Below are positions 4,830 to 29,386 of a DNA stretch of 32,000 bases, piece by piece (the stretch's first letter is position 1; each line of letters opens with the position of its first letter). Source of the stretch: Candidatus Saccharimonadota bacterium (GTDB lineage Bacteria; Patescibacteriota; Gracilibacteria; BD1-5; UBA6164); NCBI GenBank assembly GCA_965229705.1, contig OZ245922.1, forward strand, positions 270,001 to 302,000, read 5' to 3'. The translations under genes and the position numbers were made by a program. Below the pieces are notes generated by a model, which was not told the DNA's origin, did no database searches, and was given only the letters and a program-made list of their open reading frames with translations.

Positions 4830-4914
4830 TTAAGGAGGATCTGAGAAAGGTATTTTTGTTTTCTCGAGACCGGTCTCTTACACAAGATTTTTCTATTTTT
4901 CAGAGCTTCCTTAA
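4830..4914. repeat. MITE-like palindromic repeat, type II
   Basis: TTAAGGAGGATCTGAGAAAGG...CTCGAGACCGGTCTCTTACACAAGATTTTTCTATTTTTCAGAGCTTCCTTAA, near-identical to 2606-2694. Confidence 0.75.
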
Positions 4915-5667: not shown

Positions 5668-6957
5668 ATGTCCAAAAAAATATATCTCATAGACGGAAAT
5701 TCTTTTATATATCGGATGTTTTTTGCGATTCCTGAGTTTACTACGAGCTCTGGAAAACCAGTGAATGCTACTTTTTGAATGGCAAAGTTTTTTATGGGAC
5801 AACTCAGAAAAGAATCTCCAGACTACCTTGTCTTCATTCGAGATGCAAAAGGAGAAAATTTTCGTCACAAGATATATAGTCAGTACAAAGCTACGAGAGA
5901 AAAAATGCCCGACAATCTCAGAAATCAAATGAAAGATATAGAGGAGATGATACAAAAAATGAATATACAAATAGTAGAAAAAATATGATATGAAGCTGAT
6001 GATATCATTGCCACACTGGCAGTCCAACTTTCCGAGCAAACTGATAATGAGATATATATTCTCTCCTGAGACAAAGATCTCTATGCTCTTGTCAGCGAAC
6101 AGGTCAAGATCTATGATACACAAAAGAAGAAGATTTCAGGACCAGAAGAAACCTTTGAGAAGTTTGGTGTTCCGGCCTCTTGCGTGAGAGATTACCTCGC
6201 TATATGTGGAGATAGCAGTGACAATATTCCGGGTATAGCTGGTATATGACCCAAAAAAGCAATCGTACTCTTAAACGAGTTTTGATCATTGGAAAAGATA
6301 TATGAAGCTCTTGACAGCTTGCCTGGTAACATATCTCCAGAAGCTCAAAAAATCTTTTCCTGAAAAACACTAGAAAAATTTCAAGAAGGAAAAGAAGATG
6401 CCTTCCTTTCTCAAAGACTCGCTACCTTAGAACTTTGAGTTGATTTATGAGGTTTTGATATAGGTGATTTTATATTTCATTGAAGTGATATATATACACC
6501 TGAAGTACAAGATTTTTTTACGACCCTTGAGTTTCATTCTCTTTTGGAGAAATCGCAGGAGAAAAAAAATACATGGGAAGATATGTGAAAAAAAGTGCAG
6601 ATTATTACTCATAGTGAGGACTTACGCAAGCTTGAAAAACAGATTCTCTCATCATCACAAGTCGTTATTGATACAGAAACAAGTAGTATTAACCCGAGAG
6701 AAGCCCAGCTCATTTGAGTTTCTCTCTTACTAGATGAGCAGCATATTTTTTATGTAAACCACCAACACAACTGAGAAAAAGTGAGGATGTGAGACTTACA
6801 AATATTTCTGAAAAATATTCTCAACTCACACGTCACGATTATCTGACACAACCTCAAGTACGACCTCCAGGTAATACAGTCTTTTATCAGTCAAAATCCG
6901 AGCGATACACAAGAAAAATTGTCGGGAGTTTTTTGACAAATGACACTGGAATTATAA
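5668..6957 (+). CDS. polA: DNA polymerase I N-terminal fragment: 5'-3' exonuclease plus partial 3'-5' exonuclease, no polymerase domain
   Basis: MSKKIYLIDGNSFIYRMFFA..., GYEADDIIATLA and CGDSSDNIPGIAGIGPKKA mark the 5' nuclease and H3TH. VVIDTETSSINPREAQLIGVSL is Exo I and TIIGHNLKYDLQV is Exo II. Frame verified codon by codon to TAA at 6955-6957. htpX starts 33 nt later. Confidence 0.85.
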
Positions 6958-7895: not shown

Positions 7896-7997
7896 AGAGA
7901 GTTATATTCACACACTACGTTCTTTCTTGAGTCAAGCAAAAATCCTGTAAGTCATTGAGTTTTCTTGAAAAAAGAGTATTTTTGTTTTGTGCATTAC

Positions 7998-8105
7998 TTA
8001 AAGGAGGTTCTGAAAAACAAAAAATTTCTCCTCCTCTCTGGCTCTATCGAGCTCTCTCTCCTTTGAAAAAGGAGAGAAAAAAGGAGTTTCTCAGAGCTTC
8101 CTTAA
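7998..8105. repeat. MITE-like repeat, type I
   Basis: Same TIRs and CTCTCCTTTGAAAAAGGAGAG hairpin as 869-973. Abuts a type II copy and shares the TTAA at 8102-8105. Confidence 0.75.
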
Positions 8106-8187
8106 GGAAGCTCTGAGAAACAAAAATTCTCGCGTATAAGAGACCGGTCTCGAAAACGAAGAAGTATATTTCTCAGAGACTCCTTAA
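8102..8187. repeat. MITE-like repeat, type II (short core)
   Basis: TTAAGGAAGCTCTGAGAAAC...GAGACCGGTCTC...TTTCTCAGAGACTCCTTAA. Confidence 0.7.
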
Positions 8188-8209
8188 GAGTCTTCTTAAC
8201 CAATATATT

Positions 8210-8818
8210 ATGAAACCTTTTATTACCTTTCTTTTCATTACCTGATTTTCGATACAAACTCTCTTTGCCTACACAGAGCAAAACATAGAGTCAGCAAACT
8301 TTTTAGCGCAAAACGGGATTATCAATGACAACTCAGATAATATCCTTGCTTACTGACTTGATAATAATATTACTCGCCGTGAAATGCTCAAAGTCATGAT
8401 GAAGCTCTCATGAAAAGAGGTCACAGAAAGCTGTCAGTGAGATTTTTCTGACCTTTCAGGAACTGACTGGTGATGTAAATATGCAGAAGCGGCTCTCAGA
8501 GAATGATTTATTGCTGCAAATGACAACTTTCGCCCAGGAGACAATGTCACCCAGATAGAGGCACTCAAGATGATTATGCAGGCAAAAAATACGCCTCGTG
8601 ATACCAATACAGATGACTGGAGAGCCGGATATGTCTCAAAAGCCCAAAGAGAAAATTATATCGATGAGGGGTATTTTAACTATGATGAGTTTGCACTGAG
8701 GGGATTTATATTTGACAGTTCAGCCAGAAGCTATGACGAGTTTTTGTATACCCAGTCAGACTGATGAACGATTGCTCCTGAGATAGAAGAACTCTTAGAA
8801 TCTATTTTTGATTTATAA
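8210..8818 (+). CDS. secreted SLH-like (S-layer homology) repeat protein, paralog 1
   Basis: 202 aa with a signal-like N-terminus MKPFITFLFIT-G-FSIQTLFA. SLH-like units: ANFLAQNGII...ITRREMLKVMMKL and DFSDLSGTDW-G-CKYAEAALRE-G-FIAANDNFRPGDNVTQIEALKMI. Confidence 0.7.
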
Positions 8819-8822
8819 AAAG

Positions 8823-9602
8823 ATGAAGCGTGTTTTTTGACTGTTTGTTTTTCTTGCATTTCTGAGCTTTGCAAGCGCCTCAGTAGACGACAACTACATC
8901 GTTGTTCAACAAGAGTCAAAACTCTGTGGAAACTTTATCAAGTGAGATAGCAAAAATCCTAATTGGCTCCAAGAGTGATGGCAAGCTCTGTATCTTGCAG
9001 GTGAGCAATATCCACAATACTCAAAAACTTCTGCATGTATTCAGTGAGATACTTTTTCCTGCTGTAGAGAACTGTGACTTCGCTATGCCGGTGTTCCCAT
9101 AGGGGTATCTTTTGTGAGTTCACACAGATTTTCTGCTGAATTTCTTGCAGGAAAAGGTATCATAACTGCTCGCTATCTCAATCCATCAGAGTATAAACTC
9201 CGACAAAATATTTCTCGAAAAGAGTTTCTCAAGATTATTATGACTACTTCATGAAAAGAAGTCACAGAAAACTGTCAGTGAGATTTCTCTGATCTTTCAC
9301 GAACTGACTGGTGATGTAAATACGCAGAAGCAGCTCTGAGAGAATGATTTATTGCTGAAAATGATACCTTTCGTCCAAACGCTCATATATGATATGCGGA
9401 GTCTCTCAAACTTATTTTTTGATCTCGTGATATTACCCAAACCTACACTGATCTTTCTTGGGAGGAAAACTATATTTTTTCAAGCTATTATAAGGGGTAT
9501 ATTGATACTATTCCTGAGTATTATCAGAGGGCTATGACTCGATGAGAAGTTTTTGAGATACTTGCGAGAACATATCCCGAATTTTCGTATAGAGATTTCT
9601 AA
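8823..9602 (+). CDS. secreted SLH-like repeat protein, paralog 2
   Basis: 259 aa with signal peptide MKRVF-G-LFVFLAFLSFASA and a Cys-rich N-terminal insert. Shares the CQ-G-DFSDLS.TDW-G-CKYAEAALRE-G-FIA block with paralog 1, about 90 percent DNA identity over about 124 nt. Confidence 0.7.
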
Positions 9603-9675
9603 GAGAGGAGATTTTCTTTTTCTTGGTTTTTTATACTATGTTCAAGCACTTTTTTAATTTTTTATATATTTTCCT

Positions 9676-10275
9676 ATGTCTAAAATATTTTCTGGAATAA
9701 GTCTTGTTTTTTTATGTCTTACTGTGAGCGTCACTTGAGTATTTTCGATGTCGTATAATGCATCTCAGATAGATGCAGCAAATTTTCTTGCAGAGAGGTG
9801 AATTATCGTAGATCAAAGTAGTAATCCCTCAGAATATAATCTAGATAGTTTTATAGAGAGAAAAGCAACTATGAAAGTGGTGATGAAGCTTTCGGGTGTA
9901 GATATACCTGATGTGTGTTATTGAGTTTTTTCTGATGTGCAAAGCGGTTGGCACTGCAAGTATATAGAACAAGCTTTAGCGCAGTGATTTATATCTCTCA
10001 ATACAACTTTTCGGCCTGATGATAATATTACAAAAACAGAGGCAATGAAGCTTGTTTTACAAGCAAAGGGAATTGAAAAAATAGCAAATACGGCTATATG
10101 GCAAGAAGATTATATGGAGACAGCGTATCATTATGGTATTATACAAGAAAAATACTATGACTACAATGCTCTTGCCAGTCGTGGTTGGATATTTGAAATA
10201 GCTACGGCAAGTATTAAAAGGCAAGAAGCGCAAGAGAGTATAAAAGAGGAACTGATGAGTGATGAAGCATTGTAA
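9676..10275 (+). CDS. secreted SLH-like repeat protein, paralog 3
   Basis: 199 aa. Signal-like N-terminus, then AANFLAER-G-IIVD...ERKATMKVVMKL and CY-G-VFSDVQSGWHCKYIEQALAQ-G-FIS..FRPDDNITKTEAMKLV. Confidence 0.7.
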
Positions 10276-10306
10276 AAAATACAGTATTTGAAAAGATAAA
10301 AAAAAT

Positions 10307-10334
10307 TTGACTTGCTTTTACATGCGAATATAAA
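10307..10334 (+). promoter_or_regulatory. sigma-70-type promoter upstream of the leu leader
   Basis: TTGACT (10307-10312), a 16-nt spacer, then TATAAA (10329-10334). The same TTGACT -35 recurs upstream of the sigma-factor and HD genes. Confidence 0.5.
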
Positions 10335-10364
10335 AGGACTATAGTTTTATTTTTCACAAAAGCT

Positions 10365-10436
10365 ATGAAAAGAATATTTACTCAAACTCTGCTGCTGACT
10401 CTTGGAATATTCCTGGAGGCAGTTTTTTTCGTGTAA
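10365..10436 (+). CDS. candidate Leu-rich leader peptide (23 aa)
   Basis: ATG at 10365 encodes MKRIFTQTLLLTLGIFLEAVFFV, then TAA. CTG CTG CTG at 10391-10399 plus two more Leu codons. Lies between the promoter and a strong terminator directly upstream of leuA. Confidence 0.4.
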   Translation: MKRIFTQTLLLTLGIFLEAVFFV

Positions 10437-10456
10437 ATTTGAAATATTTTTTCTAT

Positions 10457-10497
10457 AAACTCTCTTCAGGTATGAAAGAGAGTTTTTTATTTTTTTA
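10457..10497 (+). terminator. rho-independent terminator (candidate attenuator) ahead of leuA
   Basis: 10-bp stem AAACTCTCTT / AAGAGAGTTT with a 9-nt loop, followed by TTTATTTTTTT. The leuA ATG is at 10504. Confidence 0.65.
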
Positions 10498-10503
10498 CTT
10501 TTT

Positions 10504-12138
10504 ATGATGATGCAAGTACCTACAAATTCTTGAGAAATAATATGAGATGATGGAAGAAAAAAGATTATCTTATTTGATACAACGCTCCGAGACGGTCATC
10601 AATGCCCATGAGCAGCAATAGAGAACGATGAAGATTATTTTTGAGTTGTTCGGTGACTTGATAAGATATGATTTGATATATGCGAGGTATGATTTCCAGC
10701 GTCTTCAGCTCACGAAGCTTGGAGAGTTAATCAGGTCGCAGAGATGTGTAAAGCTGGAGAGATATCTACCATGGTTTGTTGACTCTCACAAATGGTGGAT
10801 TTTCAGGTTGATGCTTGTCTACAGGCATTGGCGTCAGCAATAGAAGTACAAAAAGGATTTTTTCATATATATTTCCCCGTTGACCCAAAACTGCGATCGG
10901 CAAGTATTTGAGACAAAGTTTCTGATCGTCAGGCAGTTGAAGATGTCGCAAAGTTTTCTAAAATGGCTTATGATATGTGAGCCATAGTCCAGTTTTCTCC
11001 TGAAGGGTATTCTCGAGTATGAGACAACTTTGATTTTTGCACAGATCTGCTCATAACAGCGGCTGAGAATGGGGCAACATATTTTAATATGCCTGATACT
11101 ATTTGAGGAGAGGATCAGGATAATACATCAAAAGAATACTATGTGAATACTATTATCCGACATAAAGCTATTCTTGATCAGAGATTTCCAGGAAATAATT
11201 TTATATGGTCAGTACATAATCATAATGACTTATGAAATGCTGTTCAAAACAGTATCAACGGAGTACGACAATGAACTGGAATTTCAAAAATGGAGACATC
11301 AATAAATGGAGTAGGGGAGAGAGCAGGAAACGCAGATGGATGCCAGATTATTACACGCATGAAGACGACGCTTGCAAACCAGTTTGATATAGATCATATT
11401 GTTGCCAAACATATAAGCGAGATATCAGGCTTAGTATCAAAAAGTATGCTCCCAACGCAAGCACATTATGCTATAGTGTGAGCTAATGCGATGAAACATA
11501 CTTCTTGATGACACGCCAATGCAATTTTACGCAATCCTACGGTCTATCAGCCGTTTGATCCAAGTATTGTATGATGAAAAATACGCTTGGTATATGGACC
11601 AAACTCAGGAGGGAACCTGGCAATAGATATTATAAAAAGACAATGATATGTATGCCCAAAAGAACATAAGCGAGATCTTGATGAGTTTTTAAAGCAAAAA
11701 ATGAAAGAAACATGAAGATACAAGTGAGTCACAGATGAAGAACTACTGGACCTATATAAAGAATTTCGAAGCCCTATTAAGATTATATGATACGAAAAAA
11801 ATAAAATAGATGAGTCAAACTGAGTAGAAATCACTTTTGATGGAAAACTGTTTTGAGAAGAGTCAGTGAAACTCAGAGGTGAAACAGCTTTTACAGTTCT
11901 CAAGGATTTTCTTTCTGAGAAAATCCCAGGTTATAGTGTGAAGAATTTTCGTTCAGGTTCAGTAGAACTATGATCAAGGTCAAAAGCAGTTACCACGGTA
12001 GAAATAGTAAACAAAGAAACAGAGGAAATGACGGTATGAGTATGAAGAGATAATGATATTGAAACTTCTTCTTTGAAGGCACTGGCAAATGCGTTTAATG
12101 AGGTTTTTATTGATAAGCATTTTAAGGAGAAAGAGTAG
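10504..12138 (+). CDS. leuA: 2-isopropylmalate synthase
   Basis: 544 aa. Motifs LFDTTLRDGHQCP-G-AA, GFPASS, HNHNDL-G-NAVQNS and SINGVGERAGNA mark the HMGL-like domain. The C-terminal V-G-V-G-RDNDIETSSLKALANAFNE resembles the LeuA regulatory domain. Confidence 0.9.
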
Positions 12139-12163
12139 TTTTTTTTCACAAAACTATTTTTTT
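12136..12163 (+). terminator. weak AT-rich hairpin plus T-run after leuA
   Basis: TAGTTTT-TTTTCAC-AAAACTA followed by TTTTTTT. Only 2 GC pairs in the stem. Confidence 0.3.
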
Positions 12164-12200
12164 AGATATCATAAAAAAAAATATTCACCATAAAATATAT

Positions 12201-12713
12201 ATGCTTGGTATAGAGATCACCGCGTTTATTGTATCACAAATACTGGTATGAATTGCGATTGTTACGGACTTTGTAAGTTTTCAGTTTAAGGACAGGAAGA
12301 AGGTTCTGATATGGCTAACAATATCTTCAACACTCATTACGATTCATTATTTATTGCTTGGTCAGATAAACGCTTTTTTCCTCCTGACAATCTCTACATT
12401 TTCGTTTCTTGTTTCTGCCTTCACGCATGATAAGCGAGTCATGTATCTTTTTTTTCTTTTTTACTTACTTCCTGTAGTTCTGAACTATCAAGAGGCTTCA
12501 GATCTGCTTATATTTGTATGATTATATATAATTCTTTTTGCAAAATTTCAAAAAAACGACAAGCACATAAGACTTTGAATAATGCTGTGAATTACATTTG
12601 TTATAGCTTATAATATTGTCATATTTACACCTATGTGAGTGTTGCTTGAGGTACTCTTTCTTGGGAGTAATGTGATATGATTTTACAAGCATTATTTGAG
12701 AGGGGAGAGATAA
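12201..12713 (+). CDS. YgjV-family inner membrane protein
   Basis: 170 aa, 6 TGA-Gly codons. DFVSFQFKDRKKVLIWLTISSTLITIHYLLLGQINAFFL matches my recollection of the YgjV SFQ.K.R...L core. Multi-TM. Confidence 0.55.
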
Positions 12714-12791
12714 ATTACATAAGTACATTATCAATAAACAACTTCTTTTTTTCACGAAATTTCATTTTTCCATTTGTCCCTGTAACAGGTA

Positions 12792-14231
12792 CTAACTCCT
12801 CACAAACCCCCCGTGAAATCCTGCCGTTATCCTTACGGGAAAATACGCTATAAACTCTTCTTTCATAGACTGAGCGTTTAGACCAAGGAGAAAGTTTTTC
12901 TCCTTTTTCTCATCAAAGCCATAACATAATAAAATTCCATCATCTTCACTTTTAGAATTTTTATTTTCTACAAAAACTGGTTCTCCAAAATAACAATGCT
13001 CTTTGGTAAAAATAAGTGATTTTTTATGTTCTAAGACATCAAGCTTTACGATATTTGTAAAAATATTATTTCCTTTCGTGTTCCTATTTAGGTTCCCAAC
13101 TCCATACACAAACCTATGTTTTTTATTGATATATTTTTCATTTATCCTTTGCAGTTCACAAGTATAATCTGCTACTTTCTCTTCCTGAATAGAACCACTT
13201 TTGAGATTCATAGAATATCTCATATATTTTGGAGGATAGATGGAGACTCCTCCTTTTTTTAGGTTTTCTATCATAAAATCTTTGAGTATCTGAGGATTAT
13301 CAAAAACAGGAAGTTCAAGAGTGATAGTATCATTTTCTTCATACGCATTTGTTGTGTGAAAAAAGAAAAAAGGATTTACTTTAAACGATTTAACTTTTTC
13401 TCCATTTGATTTTCTCACAATATGAATTTTTGTTTTCATAAAATTTCCAAACCATTGTATATTTTGAAAAAACGAGAAAGGTAAAAAAACAACTGCTGCT
13501 GGAAATAGTAATTTATAGGGCTGTTCAATTACTACCACATAGTTTTTTGTTTGAGCAAGTGAGTGAAAATAACTCGGACAAAGCCTAAAAAATCGTGTAA
13601 TAACTTCTCTTTTTTCCGTTGTAATATCCTGTCTTATAACTTTATGCTGTGAAATGAGGTTCATCTCAACAATTATGTTATACATATTTTTTCTATCAAT
13701 TTGTGGGTGAGCAGTGGTTATTTGCCCAAAAATGTTATTAAACTTATAATTTTGAAGTGTGTTTAAACATGTATCAAACTCCACATATTGAGTAGTTTCA
13801 GTTAGAGCCAAAAAGTTTTTATTTTTATTTTGAACAATATTCACATTACAATTATCCATATCTTTTTGAGAACTTTGAGGAATTTGTGGAAGCACACATT
13901 TTAATAATCTCAATAAATTAAATTTAGAAAATTTCTTTGGTCTTGTAGCAAACATAAAACCTTTATTTTTATTCTCTTCAATTGATTTTTTATAAGAATG
14001 GGATTGTAAAAATTTATTTTTAAAATAAATATTATCATTATCAAACTTTATAGAAAACAAATGTGAAAAACCATCAAACCAATGATTCAAATAGTCTTCT
14101 CCTGAATGAAATTTTCCAGGACCAATTCTCAGGAGTTGTCCGGTAATATCTTTTGGAATTTTCCCAGAAACTTTGAGCTCGGTCCAATCAGTCTCGGCTG
14201 ATACTTCATCAAAAAAGTTTTTGAATGCCAT
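12792..14231 (-). CDS. carotenoid cleavage oxygenase family protein (RPE65/CCD/lignostilbene dioxygenase superfamily)
   Basis: The only long standard-code ORF in the window (479 aa), ATG at 14231 to TAG at 12792-12794. The four iron-ligand His contexts are present: TTAHPQID, SYFHSLAQTKNYVVV, FFFFHTTNAYEE and AGFHGGF at the C-terminus. Zero TGA codons. Confidence 0.85.
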   Translation of the reverse strand: MAFKNFFDEVSAETDWTELKVSGKIPKDITGQLLRIGPGKFHSGEDYLNHWFDGFSHLFSIKFDNDNIYFKNKFLQSHSYKKSIEENKNKGFMFATRPKKFSKFNLLRLLKCVLPQIPQSSQKDMDNCNVNIVQNKNKNFLALTETTQYVEFDTCLNTLQNYKFNNIFGQITTAHPQIDRKNMYNIIVEMNLISQHKVIRQDITTEKREVITRFFRLCPSYFHSLAQTKNYVVVIEQPYKLLFPAAVVFLPFSFFQNIQWFGNFMKTKIHIVRKSNGEKVKSFKVNPFFFFHTTNAYEENDTITLELPVFDNPQILKDFMIENLKKGGVSIYPPKYMRYSMNLKSGSIQEEKVADYTCELQRINEKYINKKHRFVYGVGNLNRNTKGNNIFTNIVKLDVLEHKKSLIFTKEHCYFGEPVFVENKNSKSEDDGILLCYGFDEKKEKNFLLGLNAQSMKEEFIAYFPVRITAGFHGGFVRS

Positions 14232-14249
14232 ATTCGAAAAAGTGAAATT

Positions 14250-14363
14250 TTAAGAAAACTCTGAGAAAGTTCTTTTTATTTTCTCGAGACTGGTCTCAAG
14301 TTACTTATTTCAAGGAATTGAGACCGGTCTCTTACACAAGATTTTTCTATTTTTCAGAGCTTG
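14250..14363. repeat. MITE-like repeat, type II long variant
   Basis: TTAAGAAAACTCTGAGAAAG...CTCGAGACTGGTCTC-AAGTTACTTATTTCAAGGAATT-GAGACCGGTCTCTTACACAAGATTTTTCTATTTTTCAGAGC. Its reverse complement matches 29271-29386. Starts 18 nt upstream of the oxygenase start codon. Confidence 0.7.
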
Positions 14364-14629
14364 TTTATAGAGTAAGAAAAAAGGGAAGAAATAAAATTTT
14401 TTCTGATTCTCCTAGGGAAATGCGGAAAAACTTCGTATTTCATCGTCAAAGTGCAACATTGTCTTCAAACTCGTACAATGAGTACGCTTATTTCAGCCAA
14501 GTTGCATTTTCCTTGAACTACTTGTTTTTACACATTTCCTATTTTTCCGTGTTTCTCTATGGATAAATATTTTAATATCAGTATATTAGCGAGCAGAGAA
14601 TATATTCTTATTTTTATAATGTTTTTTGT

Positions 14630-15649
14630 ATGAAACATCCTTTTGTCGTATGACTCGTTATATCGTCTATACTCATAGGCCTTGCCTATTTTGGGAGAAG
14701 TATTTTACTTCCACTGATTTTTTCGTTTTTACTTTGGATTATTATCATTTCTTGGATGAGATTGTTTTCAAAAATATCTTTTCAAGGAAAATTTCTACCA
14801 GCAAGTTTGCGAAATATTTTATCATTTATCATATTTTGCGCGCTGATACTCTTTCTCTCAAATATCCTTGTACAAGACCTAAGAAACTTTAATGTTGTAT
14901 TGCCAGAACTCATTGAAAACGCAGAAGCAAAAGTCCAGGTGATCGAAGACGCAACAGGATTTGATATCACGAGCTTTGTACAAGAGTCGCTGTCAAAACT
15001 CAATGTGATCTGACTTGTATCGAGTCTTACAAACTCTCTTTCGAGCTTTGCAACCACACTCTTTATCGTGTTTATCTATCTACTATATATTGGAAATGAA
15101 CAAAGATATTTTCAAACAAAACTCAAAATAGTGAGTGGTTCTCGCTATAATACGCATTTCAAGCTTTTATTGGATATTGTTCAGAGTATCGAAAAATACA
15201 TTAGTGTAAAAACCGCTATTAGTGCCCTTACAGGAATACTCTCGTATATAGTAATGGTTATTATTGGCGTAGAGTTTGCTTTTGTATGGGCATTTATCAT
15301 ATTTGCGATGAATTTTATTCCAACGATTGGTTCTCTCATAGCTACGACACTTCCAGTGATATTTGCTCTTATCGCATTTGATACTTACTGGCAATCCTTT
15401 GCTCTATTAACACTGATTGGTGGGATACAACTCTATGTAGGAAATGTCCTAGAACCAAAATATCTTTGAAACAAGCTCAATGTCAGTCCTTTGCTACTTT
15501 TCTTTTCTCTGTATTTTTGGAATGCCCTTTGGTGAATAGCAGGAATGTTTATTGCTGTTCCTCTCACGGTAATTATTATGATTATTCTTCTGCATATTCC
15601 TGCAACAAAATCTATTGGAATATGGATGTCATGAGACGGTAAGGTATAA
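14630..15649 (+). CDS. AI-2E family transporter (PerM/UPF0118)
   Basis: 339 aa, frame followed codon by codon from ATG 14630 to TAA 15647-15649. Contains FIIFAMNFIPTIGSLIATTLPVIFAL and GNVLEPKYL-G-NKLNVSPL, typical of the family. Confidence 0.8.
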
Positions 15650-16468: not shown

Positions 16469-17197
16469 TTAGTGAGAAGGGTGATCATGTTTCTTGTGCG
16501 CGGTATGTTCATAGGGTCGTAAGTACTTTCAAAAAAGATGTTTCACATCTTCGTTTTCTAAAACTTCACTGGGTGTTCCATGACAGCAGAGATTATTTTC
16601 ATGCAGACATATGACTCTGGTCGAGTTCTTGTAAACCAGGTGCAGGTTATGTGACACAAGGATAATGGCCATTTGAGGATAGTTTTTTCTGATCTCAGAG
16701 ATATTTTTATAAAAAGCTTCCTCTCATATACGATCTATTCAACTAGTCGGTTCATCGAGTAAGATGATTTCAGGGTCTGATACAAGAGCTGAGACAATCA
16801 GTATTTTTTGAAACTCTCCTCCAGAGAGTGTATGTATATTGTTTTCCAGAAGATGATTTACAGAAAAGAGTTTTGCAAGAGACTCTATTTTTTGTATTTT
16901 GAGGTTTTGATGAAACATTGCAAAAAACTCTTTGACTTTTACGGGGAAGTTTTTTTCGAGTTGTATTTTCTGGGGAACATATGCTATTTTTTGAGTCTGA
17001 AGAGATATATTTCAGCAAAAGGGTTTTTGTATTCATGCAATAGTCTTGAGGAGGCTTGATTTTCAAGTTCCATTTTTTCAAATAATAGAAAGTATTTCTC
17101 ATGAATGCAAAGAAAAGCTTATATCCCGAAGGATAAAGCTTTTTCCTGAATCATACGAAATATCGATATGTGAGAGTTCGAGAAGTTTTTTACTCAT
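16469..17197 (-). CDS. znuC: metal ABC transporter ATPase
   Basis: 242 aa. Walker A G-KNGT-G-KSS with both Gly as TGA (17063-17080), signature LSGGEFQK, Walker B ILLDEPTS-G-ID. The start ATG (17195-17197) overlaps the znuA stop by 8 nt. Confidence 0.88.
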
Positions 17198-18317
17198 AGA
17201 CTTTTGCGAGATTCTCCAAATTACTTTTGAGGTTTTCTATATATCCTCCAGCGCTTGGGTTTGCTCAGAGAGGATCAAGTGTTCCGAGTTTGAGGCCGTA
17301 CTCATTTGCAAATCTTTTAATATTTCCTGTTGAAAACTGTGGTTCAGTAAAGCCATGAGAGATATTATGCTCTTGTACTTGTTCGACGAGCTCTGCAAGA
17401 TAGGCAGTTCCTGTATCATGCAATACATTTTCAGAGAAAGGGACTTTGAGATGCATATCCATTCATACTGACTGCATGAGGTAGTTGTATGCGTCATGAA
17501 ATACTATAAACTTTTTTGGAGATTTCCCAGCGGTAGTTTCAGCGAAGTTTTTGTAGGCAGATCGTACTTCGTTTTTAAAGTTTTCTGCGTTTTGGCTAAA
17601 GTATTCTGATTGTTCTGGGATTTCTTTTGAAAACTCGTCTCGAATAGTGTCAGCTATTTGAAAAATATTATCTTTTCCAAGCCATACATGAGGATCACTG
17701 CTATGATCATGTTCATCGCGATGTTCTCACTTATCGTGTTCATCATCATGGTACTCATCTGTATGAGTTTCTTCATCATGATGTTCATCAGAATGACCGT
17801 GATTATCGTGATGTTCATCTTCATGCTCATCTTCATGATGTTCCTCTTCTTCGTGGTGCTCATCATCACTATGACCATCGTGGTGATCATGTCACTCAAC
17901 TTCAATAAGTTTCATGCCATCGGCGAGATGTATTTGTTTACTTGTATCTACAGCTTTCTCAAGAAATCCATCTATATGTTCGAGACCAATCATGAATACT
18001 TTCTCACTTTTTGATATATCAGCCATCATTTTTGCTGAGAGATCAAAACCATGAGGAGAAACTCCTGCGGGAACAATATTTGTTACTACAGCGTAGTCTC
18101 CACCAATAGTCTTCACGAGTGATGATAAAGGAACAATAGAGCTACTCACATATATTCTATTTTCTAATATATCTTTTGGCATATAGTCAGTTGAATACTC
18201 CGGCTTGTTATCTAGGTTACGCTCTGAGAGAGGTATATACTCTTGCGTATCTGTTACTGCGCTTCCACATGATACAACAAGAAAACTCATCAGGATGAGA
18301 GTTATAACTTTTTTCAT
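17190..18317 (-). CDS. znuA: zinc ABC transporter substrate-binding lipoprotein with long His/Asp/Glu-rich loop
   Basis: MKKVITLILMSFLVVSC lipobox, then a cluster A-I SBP fold (VSPHGFD, DPHVWL, FHDAYNYL, FTEPQFS). A 69-aa His-rich insert maps to 17688-17894. The alternative upstream start at 18356 would overlap zur. Confidence 0.8.
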
Positions 18318-18343
18318 AATATTATGATTATAGAAATATGATT

Positions 18344-18745
18344 TTATCACTGGCATCTTTTACATACCCCAAAAATATTGATACAGTGCTCATGGATATG
18401 AAAACCAATTTTTTCTGCTTCTGCAAAAATTTTTGAACATACATCATGAGAGTCAAAACTGAGTATTTCTCAGCAAGAGTGGCACTTCATATGTTCATGG
18501 TGGCATTTTTTACAGCACTCAATTTCATAGCTTTCTCCATATGCTCAGAGGTGAACACGCCGAAGAACTCATATTTCTCAAAAGAGTTTGAGTGTTCGAA
18601 ATATACTTGCGCGACCAATATCAGGAAATGCCTCAATAATATCCTTACTTTGAAAAATGTGGAGACTCTGCATTTTTTCAAAAAGTTTCACTCTTTCGGG
18701 AGTGACTTTTTTGTTGTGGGATATGAGCTGTTTCTTGATTTCCAT
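18344..18745 (-). CDS. zur: Fur-family metalloregulator, Zur-like
   Basis: 133 aa. GRASIFRTLKLF-G-EI-G-VL winged helix, CCKKCHHEHMKCHSC-G and GVCKRCQ-G CxxC pairs. First gene of the operon with znuACB. Confidence 0.8.
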
Positions 18746-20280: not shown

Positions 20281-20421
20281 TTAAGAAAGCTCTGAGGAAC
20301 TCCTTTTTTCTCTCTTTTCAAAAAAAGAGAAGAATCTATTTTCCCCTCCCTTATCAAGGGAAGGGTTATATATTCTAGAGATGGCTCGATAGAGCTAGAG
20401 AGGATTAGAGAAATCGCTTAA
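20281..20421. repeat. MITE-like repeat, type I, inverted orientation with about 45-bp internal insertion
   Basis: TTAAGAAAGCTCTGAGGAAC...hairpin...GATGGCTCGATAGAGCTAGAGAGGATTAGAG is the reverse complement of the 869-973 core. An extra hairpin CCCCTCCCTTATCAAGGGAAGGG is inserted. Confidence 0.65.
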
Positions 20422-29270: not shown

Positions 29271-29386
29271 CTAAGGAGACGCTGAAAAATAGAAAAATCT
29301 TATGTAAGAGACCGGTTTCAAGCTCTTGAAATAAGTAACTCGAGACCGGTCTCGAGAAAATAAAAATGACTTTCTCAGAACTTCTC
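29271..29386. repeat. MITE-like repeat, type II long variant, inverted relative to 14250-14363
   Basis: CTGAAAAATAGAAAAATCTTATGTAAGAGACCGGTTTCAAGCTCTTGAAATAAGTAACTCGAGACCGGTCTCGAGAAAATAAAAATGACTTTCTCAGAAC closely matches the reverse complement of 14250-14363. Confidence 0.7.

Follow-up and report, generated by a model that had tools for sequence, protein, structure and literature searches.

A TGA-free gene of the carotenoid cleavage dioxygenase family in a UGA=Gly patescibacterium and its likely acquisition from a standard-code gene pool

How does a gene without a single in-frame TGA come to lie in a chromosome that appears to read TGA as glycine? The question is raised by a 32,000-nt stretch of a Patescibacteria genome (hereafter the window: positions 270,001 to 302,000 of contig OZ245922.1, which is 1,006,762 bp long), where a 479-codon gene of the carotenoid cleavage dioxygenase (CCD) family stands among genes rich in TGA. 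We consider it likely that this gene entered the code-25 Patescibacteria by horizontal transfer from a standard-code, AT-rich gene pool that is kept mostly in small-genome Nanoarchaeota. A preliminary description, made from the letters of the window, had proposed a recent acquisition from a standard-code donor. Here, we set the codon content and composition of the gene beside those of its neighbors, its close copies in other genomes, and its flanks in another strain.

Codon content and composition of the gene and its host window

With stops limited to TAA and TAG, long open reading frames (ORFs) run throughout the window, and their translations with TGA as Gly give clean Pfam matches to housekeeping proteins. 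In-frame TGA falls on the Gly positions of DnaJ CxxCxGxG, MraY DGLDGLA, and LeuA HNDLG. Five proteins were also translated with Trp in place of Gly at TGA, and the score of every matched Pfam domain fell (for the HMGL-like domain of LeuA, 131.4 bits with Gly and 109.9 with Trp; for MraY, 105 and 81.3 bits). Judged from these reading frames, TGA is Gly and not Trp in the host, and the host is a code-25 bacterium, because TGA occupies conserved Gly sites and the Pfam scores favor Gly over Trp. To our knowledge, code 25 is known only from the Gracilibacteria/Absconditabacteria branch of Patescibacteria. A scan of the window under the standard code (table 11) returned 17 ORFs of at least 100 aa, all of them no longer than 155 aa except the CCD gene, which is, as first described, the only long ORF to survive standard-code translation. 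The gene and its native neighbors are the following.

12792..14231, minus strand: CCD gene (RPE65-family carotenoid/apocarotenoid cleavage dioxygenase; Pfam PF03055), 479 codons, ATG to TAG, no TGA
10504..12138, plus strand: LeuA-like gene, native, 28 TGA; last gene of the block whose order is kept in code-25 relatives with no CCD at this place
12201..12713, plus strand: YgjV-family membrane protein gene, native flank, convergent with the CCD gene, 6 TGA and 4 GGN (PF10688, E = 9.4e-34)
14630..15649, plus strand: AI-2E/PerM-family transporter gene, native flank, divergent from the CCD gene, 5 TGA and 15 GGN (PF01594, E = 1.3e-39)

The CCD gene has no in-frame TGA and 23 GGN codons (GGA 12, GGT 5, GGG 5, and GGC 1), in agreement with the earlier count. 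The 28 other genes of the window together hold 251 TGA and 323 GGN, which makes TGA 43.7% of their Gly codons; the earlier figure of about one third was an underestimate. Each of the 28 has at least two TGA, so that no other long gene in the window lacks this codon, and the description of native genes as TGA-heavy holds for DnaJ (21 TGA) as it does for the YgjV-like gene. A binomial model gives a probability of 1.8e-6 for 23 Gly codons without a TGA, and a beta-binomial model fitted to the gene-to-gene scatter of the TGA share among the 28 other genes gives 2.2e-4.

The gene is also AT-richer than the native genes, as had been judged by eye in comparison with leuA. Its GC content of 0.295 is the lowest in the window (native mean 0.357, range 0.322–0.391; z = −2.9), and the window's lowest 1-kb GC value, 0.279, falls inside it. 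The deficit lies mainly at codon positions 1 and 2. The encoded protein has the highest share of Phe, Tyr, Met, Ile, Asn, and Lys (FYMINK) in the window (0.424, z = +3.3), and the low GC of the gene thus stems mainly from its AT-coded amino-acid make-up.

Close copies in standard-code and code-25 genomes

A protein search with the window's CCD returned one homologue at 90% identity and four at 48–53%, with no others above 36%. Clustering at 90% identity places the window's CCD in a cluster of 15 members, and we fetched eight contigs of other cluster members or their relatives. Standard-code contigs referred to below are the following.

L008: circular 948-kb Nanoarchaeota chromosome, GC 0.23; genes for TATA-binding protein (TBP), aEF-1beta, and L34e beside the CCD gene; standard code
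L001: Nanoarchaeota, syntenic with L008; standard code
L005: 1.09-Mb contig, GC 0.28; archaeal-type leucyl-tRNA synthetase above the NCBIfam cutoff, archaeal-type tyrosyl-tRNA synthetase, and Elp3; standard code
L007 and L060: GC 0.24; best matches to type II methionine aminopeptidase and FlaI, below curated cutoffs; standard code
L002 and L003: bacteria, ~49% GC over the fetched loci, with the deeper relatives P0002 and P0003 (~50% identity); standard code

The window's CCD is 85.5–89.4% identical in DNA and 86–93% identical in protein to the archaeal-type copies, and the genomes that carry standard-code close copies have 23–28% GC. TGA is a stop codon in L001, L005, L007, L008, and L060, and their CCD copies contain no in-frame TGA. 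The L008 TBP is 80–83% identical to proteins named Nanoarchaeia, Woesearchaeota, or Nanoarchaeota, and the hosts of L007 and L060 are probably archaeal, to go by their protein matches. Both GC and GC3 (GC at third codon positions) of the CCD gene match those of the surrounding archaeal genes in L001, L008, L005, and L060. The deeper relatives likewise come from standard-code genomes, which supports the donor code first proposed. Outside the coding sequence, we found no similarity between the window and any of the fetched standard-code loci (15.7–21.4 kb each).

The close clade appears to be narrowly distributed, with members only from one ENA study (ERZ25074195 and ERZ25074183) and two short Logan contigs. 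A scan of GTDB species representatives matched only OZ245768.1, and a scan of JGI metagenomes found relatives only at 23–44% best-segment identity (~33% at most over the full length). The window's CCD falls in a separate clade (P0001–P0005) with no more than 36% identity to every other homologue found. In recoded contigs, TGA seems to be rendered as Trp by the protein collection that was searched, and identities are then understated: the LeuA of L006 (P0135), a contig from another strain, is 98.3% identical to the window's LeuA in DNA, and only 93% as the stored protein.

One other code-25 homologue was found. OZ245768.1 (L004, named "MAG: Patescibacteria group bacterium"; 1.49-Mb chromosome, GC 0.23) uses TGA for 72% of the Gly codons in 14 flanking genes, and its CCD has 1 TGA and 25 GGN (P = 2e-13). 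In all six other copies, the codon aligned with this TGA (codon 23) is GGA or GGG, and in the window it is GGG. As aligned, codon 23 shows a single G>T step and gives direct evidence that TGA is Gly in the L004 genome. The L004 CCD is 88% identical in protein to that of the window, versus 57% for DnaJ and 46% for the PriA C-terminal domain, and it lies in a different neighborhood. Its DNA is 93.4% identical to the L008 copy and departs from the low-GC consensus at only 2 of 94 four-fold sites; of 500 neighbor-joining (NJ) bootstrap replicates, only 5 joined it to the window clade. Because the hosts are distant, the locus is different, the bootstrap grouping is 5/500, and the L004 gene lies near the low-GC consensus, we conclude from these sequence comparisons that two code-25 lineages acquired CCD separately, L004 more recently.

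The junctions of the gene recur in L006, a 14-kb contig at 4.5x coverage that is 96.4% identical to the window over 6.2 kb including CCD and both flanks. Window positions 8209–14420 correspond to L006 9042–2862, and 14412–15098 correspond to L006 687–1 at 99.7%; the two blocks are parted in L006 by an insertion sequence (IS).

14412..14420: site of the 2.2-kb IS in L006, ~185 nt upstream of the CCD start; uninterrupted in the window

Misassembly at a flank had been named as a possible refutation of the transfer. Both CCD junctions are confirmed independently by L006, and a simple chimera is ruled out. Nor did the two other findings first named as able to overturn the transfer turn up: the window has no native gene without TGA, and the one other code-25 homologue has no TGA-Gly beyond codon 23. 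The IS itself (L006 688–2861) carries transposase ORFs of the DDE_Tnp_1 and Transposase_mut families with 7 and 5 TGA, which mark it as native to code-25 hosts. Two more distant code-25 contigs, L010 and L011 (LeuA 64–67% identical), keep the FNR/PolA/HtpX/SLH/LeuA order of the window and have no CCD, YgjV, or PerM after LeuA; synteny ends there, so they are weak as an empty site.

The window and L006 copies share 81 derived changes relative to the low-GC consensus, with 58 AT>GC and 9 GC>AT, and 28 of 94 four-fold sites are changed in the window's gene. The gene is therefore partly ameliorated toward host GC and has been resident long enough to drift in that direction. The preliminary statement that it had not yet ameliorated holds for TGA only and fails for base composition. 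"Recent" is likewise to be taken in a relative sense, since the synonymous divergence (dS) to the archaeal copies is ~0.5. Third-position G changed to T at 0 of 27 sites, and fewer than ~0.6 GGA>TGA events are expected among ~15 GGA codons, so too little time suffices to explain the missing TGA. With so few events expected anyway, selection against TGA is unnecessary as a cause.

Between the window and L006, dS is 0.03–0.05 for LeuA and YgjV and 0.205 for CCD. The 81 differences between the two CCD copies are clustered, with none at gene positions 508–911 or 1205–1440; the two copies are identical over at most 404 consecutive nt (permutation p ≤ 1e-5). Two tracts stand out.

13052..13320, minus strand: CCD gene positions 912–1180; the window keeps GC-enriched sequence and L006 has a low-GC-pool allele
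13732..14091, minus strand: CCD gene positions 141–500; the window is nearer the low-GC consensus (92.5%) than L006 (89.2%)

Over positions 912–1180, L006 agrees with the low-GC consensus at 95.5% of sites (and with L008 and L007 at 99% over 961–1080), and the tract contains 29 window-only derived sites and only 2 common ones. The weaker and reversed pattern at 141–500 is a possible reciprocal recombination tract. The L006 mosaic has two readings: recombination with pool alleles after the strains split, or mispolishing of a low-coverage contig by reads of abundant relatives.

Origin of the gene and direction of transfer

The course of events that we favor would be as follows. A working non-heme-iron carotenoid/apocarotenoid cleavage dioxygenase gene would have entered the UGA=Gly chromosome horizontally from a standard-code, very AT-rich gene pool, with small-genome Nanoarchaeota (of the DPANN archaea) of the same community as the main carriers. 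It would have arrived free of TGA, because a standard-code gene cannot hold an in-frame TGA, and would have stayed readable in both codes. After arrival, purifying selection would have kept the gene as it drifted toward the host's higher GC; no TGA-Gly would have been gained, as only a first-base G>T change of GGA makes TGA, a step likely to be infrequent over such a span. The gene would have been taken up independently and later by a second code-25 bacterium, only distantly related to the first, with exactly one GGA>TGA step. A mobile element may have brought the gene in, or the cell may have taken up DNA and recombined it; the substrate would most likely be a carotenoid or apocarotenoid from a host or prey, with an aldehyde such as retinal as the cleavage product.

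In this account, the direction of transfer and the immediate donor are what we infer. Movement from the standard code to code 25 is favored because the cluster is free of TGA save for the one codon in L004 and the deeper relatives are standard-code. It is favored also because the composition of the gene fits genomes of 23–28% GC and the changes on the window branch run away from the state of the pool.

Several observations weigh against this account. The GC3 of the window's CCD (0.227) is no outlier (z = −1.4). L007 and L060 are assigned to archaea on NCBIfam scores below curated cutoffs. Homology across lineages stops at or within ~45 nt of the coding sequence, and no vector is visible. The close copies all come from ENA assembly ERZ25074195, where cross-recruitment of reads in polishing could inflate their similarity; polishing with such reads could also create the L006 mosaic. 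The split of the window clade from all other cluster members was recovered in only 183 of 500 bootstraps and does not fix the root of the cluster, so the donor cannot be named from topology alone. Finally, rhodopsin, retinal, or carotenoid genes were found neither in the window nor in any fetched locus.

The surroundings of the archaeal copies bear on the route. L005 carries a 5′ CCD fragment with a ~40-nt leader and a DDE transposase (L005 7176–7435 and 8905–9816), and L007 12784–13020 duplicates the CCD 3′ end and downstream DNA beyond a 1.3-kb insert with an Lnt-like ORF. This debris suggests repeated insertion or replacement at CCD loci. A 389-aa ORF adjoins the CCD gene in L001 and L008 (7131–8300 in each) and in L005 (7634–8803), with 71% protein and 82% DNA identity; the genomes with this ORF are otherwise not syntenic. 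It matches the viral family phrog_4756, of unknown function, at E = 8e-14 and an RNA-polymerase phrog weakly; Pfam and PDB searches gave no match. The ORF may be a mobile-element gene that travels with CCD. By eye, it contains polymerase-like motifs (...DLNAATLQF... and ...HDSFIT...). Restriction-modification genes (N6 methyltransferase, ResIII/HsdR, and HsdS) lie no more than ~3 kb downstream of CCD in three unrelated genomes, which suggests that CCD tends to variable or defense-island regions.

L001 14204–18983: restriction-modification genes near CCD
L002 11487–15610: restriction-modification genes, directly adjacent to CCD
L003 11608–19259: restriction-modification genes, directly adjacent to CCD

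Among the mobile-type features seen at the window, L006, L005, and L007, no element with defined ends encloses CCD. A set of 2.9 million viral contigs was scanned twice, with a single protein and with an alignment as the query, and no CCD relative was found.

These surroundings lend some weight to a different source, in which an unsampled standard-code, AT-rich organism or mobile element, rather than an archaeon, seeded the Nanoarchaeota and the code-25 Patescibacteria in parallel. The unsettled root of the 90% cluster, the occurrence of P0002 and P0003 in standard-code bacteria, the mobile-type genes beside archaeal CCDs (the L005 transposase and 5′ fragment, the L007 3′ remnant, and the phrog_4756-like ORF), and the restriction-modification genes in L001, L002, and L003 all fit such a source. 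We nevertheless think it rather unlikely, given that the viral contigs yielded no close relative, that the 15 cluster members include no plasmid- or virus-like contig, and that the GC and GC3 of the gene match those of its archaeal neighbors in L001, L008, L005, and L060. Transfer in the opposite direction, from a code-25 bacterium that held a TGA-free CCD first and passed it to archaea, seems quite improbable. The rooted NJ tree places the window clade as sister to all other members, which can be read as basal, but with 37% bootstrap support. A FYMINK share of 0.42–0.47 and 24% GC fit genomes of 23–28% GC and not the 35% GC window, and the branch to the window and L006 is strongly AT>GC, away from the pool state. 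A long-term code-25 resident would, moreover, carry TGA, and the one TGA-bearing copy would be truncated at codon 23 under the standard code.

That the gene is native, and lacks TGA by chance or through selection for translational accuracy or high expression, can draw on the wide range of the per-gene TGA share, from 17% to 86% of Gly codons. Yet the beta-binomial probability remains at 2.2e-4 with this scatter taken into account, the protein is far closer to its L004 counterpart (88%) than the host proteins are to theirs (46–57%) and is 86–93% identical to archaeal copies, syntenic relatives lack CCD after LeuA, and both the amino-acid and the base composition are outliers; we find this explanation hardly credible. 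An assembly artefact, with an archaeal CCD spliced into a bacterial contig, might be suspected in an error-prone metagenome with many copies at 86–95% similarity, two of which (P0132 and P0134) are frameshifted. L006, a different strain with an extra IS, has the same YgjV-CCD-PerM order, and the window copy differs by 10.6–14.5% from every copy outside its own species, with changes biased toward host GC, so that we regard an artefact as extremely improbable.

Horizontal acquisition from the standard-code pool may also not have been a single event. We put forward, tentatively and as a doubtful extension, that CCD could be a community-level gene still exchanged between Nanoarchaeota and UGA=Gly Patescibacteria by DNA uptake and homologous recombination. 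Such exchange is compatible with the data because dS between the two strains is 0.2 for CCD versus 0.03–0.05 for the flanks and the differences lie in discrete tracts. If exchange is ongoing, the repeated replacement of its sequence by standard-code alleles would on its own keep the gene free of TGA. DNA would then also have to pass physically between two kinds of ultra-small episymbionts, with a common need to cleave host or prey carotenoids, for example for retinal supply, as the driving force.

Acquisition from the pool would represent a very clear recent case of archaea-bacteria sharing between DPANN and the Candidate Phyla Radiation (CPR), two large radiations of ultra-small symbionts. 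The code difference would be both a one-way valve and a clock: a UGA=Gly cell can use a standard-code gene immediately, and each later GGA>TGA change would disable that gene on return to a standard-code cell. The copies can be ordered as a time course of adaptation, with archaeal copies at zero TGA, OZ245768.1 at one TGA and little else changed, and the window copy GC-ameliorated at zero TGA. They would thus offer a view, rare and datable, of how a gene passes from one domain and one genetic code into another. For ATP citrate lyase, an earlier study suggested lateral transfer between archaea and Gracilibacteria from distant best hits (PMC6851277). That case is like CCD in that a gene common to archaea and a code-25 CPR bacterium was attributed to lateral transfer. 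It differs in resting on best-hit similarity of distant proteins, whereas the CCD copies, all from one community, share 85.5–93% DNA identity and carry in their TGA content an inherent record of direction and timing.

The predicted enzyme and other features of the window

An RPE65 profile search, as had been suggested, matched the protein end to end (PF03055, E = 1.9e-94, 317.8 bits versus a cutoff of 27; residues 9–477 of 479 on profile positions 3–468 of 469). The best PDB match was NdCCD (6vcf, E = 1.2e-67), followed by NinaB, BCMO, RPE65, and Synechocystis apocarotenoid-15,15′-oxygenase (ACO). Apocarotenoid and carotenoid oxygenases in the PDB scored between E = 1e-67 and 1e-22, and lignostilbene dioxygenases were far weaker at ~1e-8. 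The four iron-ligand His codons each fall in an invariant column and align with an NdCCD His.

13707..13709, minus strand: His175, iron ligand 1, context TTAHPQID
13563..13565, minus strand: His223, iron ligand 2, context PSYFHSLAQ
13356..13358, minus strand: His292, iron ligand 3, context FFFFHTTNA
12813..12815, minus strand: His473, iron ligand 4, context TAGFHGGFV

In a 60-sequence alignment, H175, H223, H292, and H473 are invariant, and the earlier report of four intact ligands stands. Among the three second-shell Glu residues, which in this family form hydrogen bonds to the His ligands, E145 and E417 do not vary and E359 is kept in at least 90% of the sequences. An AlphaFold2 model (pLDDT 91.1, pTM 0.90) has a predicted seven-bladed beta-propeller fold. 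Foldseek aligned it to 6vcf with TM scores of 0.89/0.94 and a root-mean-square deviation of 2.1–2.4, and the top 50 matches were all CCD, RPE65, NinaB, or ACO structures. By every sequence and predicted-fold criterion applied, the protein belongs to the CCD/RPE65 superfamily. The ratio of nonsynonymous to synonymous divergence (dN/dS) is 0.087–0.238 over all pairs of close copies and 0.09–0.13 for the window's copy. Because of these low values (0.09–0.24), we conclude that the window's gene is under purifying selection.

NdCCD, from Candidatus Nitrosotalea devanaterra (PDB 6VCF, 6VCG, and 6VCH), is the closest to the window's CCD in both sequence and structure. The two are alike in length (~470 aa) and in the four His and three Glu residues. 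They are unlike in that they are only ~32% identical, which leaves the specificity of the window's CCD unreadable from sequence, and in that NdCCD belongs to a thaumarchaeon and the window's CCD to a code-25 CPR bacterium. NdCCD is an apocarotenoid oxygenase without zeaxanthin cleavage (PMC11142922). Synechocystis ACO (Diox1, 2BIW) shares the family and fold of the window's CCD (E = 1.8e-26, TM 0.84) at ~21% identity; no rhodopsin gene is linked to the window's CCD. Retinal formation from apocarotenals by ACO provides a prokaryotic precedent for CCDs, according to Ruch et al. 2005 as cited in PMC7308576. Our best guess for the substrate, predicted from the sequence matches, is a carotenoid or apocarotenoid, and the role first suggested, cleavage of scavenged carotenoids to retinal or other apocarotenoids, is plausible.

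The usual retinal-forming enzymes of rhodopsin-bearing prokaryotes are the Blh/Brp beta-carotene 15,15′-dioxygenases. These are integral membrane proteins with a fold unrelated to the seven-bladed propeller, and the window's CCD lies outside their family; they may catalyze a similar reaction, in which a carotenoid is cleaved oxidatively to give an aldehyde. Purifying selection on a carotenoid oxygenase in organisms not expected to make carotenoids would indicate that they draw on the pigments of hosts or prey, and a link of CCD to retinal supply for rhodopsins is possible. No carotenoid-synthesis gene was found in any fetched locus, a statement that covers the loci and not whole genomes, and a search of one full-text library returned no paper pairing carotenoid cleavage with Gracilibacteria or DPANN.

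A repeat resembling a miniature inverted-repeat transposable element (MITE) begins upstream of the gene, as reported earlier.

14250..14367, no strand assigned: palindromic MITE- or repetitive extragenic palindrome (REP)-like host repeat with the core GAGACCGGTCTC; it begins 18 nt upstream of the CCD ATG
2604–2693, 4830–4913, 8134–8189, and 29272–29384: four other copies of the GAGACCGGTCTC-core repeat

The five copies in 32 kb are intergenic, ~55–120 nt long, with ends like TTAAGGAGG...CCTTAA. The copy next to CCD has an extra ~20-nt spacer, and the repeat is also present in L006. A second intergenic family of ~80 nt, 90% identical between copies and with inverted partial copies, occurs at 871–950, 8002–8081, 8068–8105, 20281–20318, and 20377–20409. 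A promoter and terminator scan around CCD found sites no commoner than in shuffled sequence, and tRNA and Rfam scans of the window gave no match.

The Pfam-matched genes of the window encode MraY, a purine-nucleoside-phosphorylase-family protein, the exonuclease part of PolA, HtpX, three S-layer homology (SLH) proteins, LeuA, YgjV, the PerM/AI-2E transporter, ZnuABC, Fur, a sigma-70 factor, Tpx, RsmE, EngB, DnaN, the PriA C-terminal domain, DnaJ, and a PLD-family protein. The PolA-like ORF (5668–6957, 429 aa) has only 5′-3′ exonuclease and 3′-5′ exonuclease domains and is directly followed by HtpX. L010 has the same 430-aa form, which implies that the polymerase domain is encoded elsewhere or absent. 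The three SLH-domain surface proteins are paralogues in a tandem array (7955–10275) that is also kept in L006, L010, and L011, and their genes have a 171-nt internal repeat in common (8366–8536 and 9207–9377, 83% identical). The ZnuA-like solute-binding protein (17190–18356) contains a long His/Asp/Glu-rich insert (HDHHDGHSDDEHHEEEEHHEDEHEDEHHD...) that is typical of metal-scavenging loops; its gene is part of a Fur-ZnuABC cluster ~1.4 kb from the gene of CCD, an iron enzyme.

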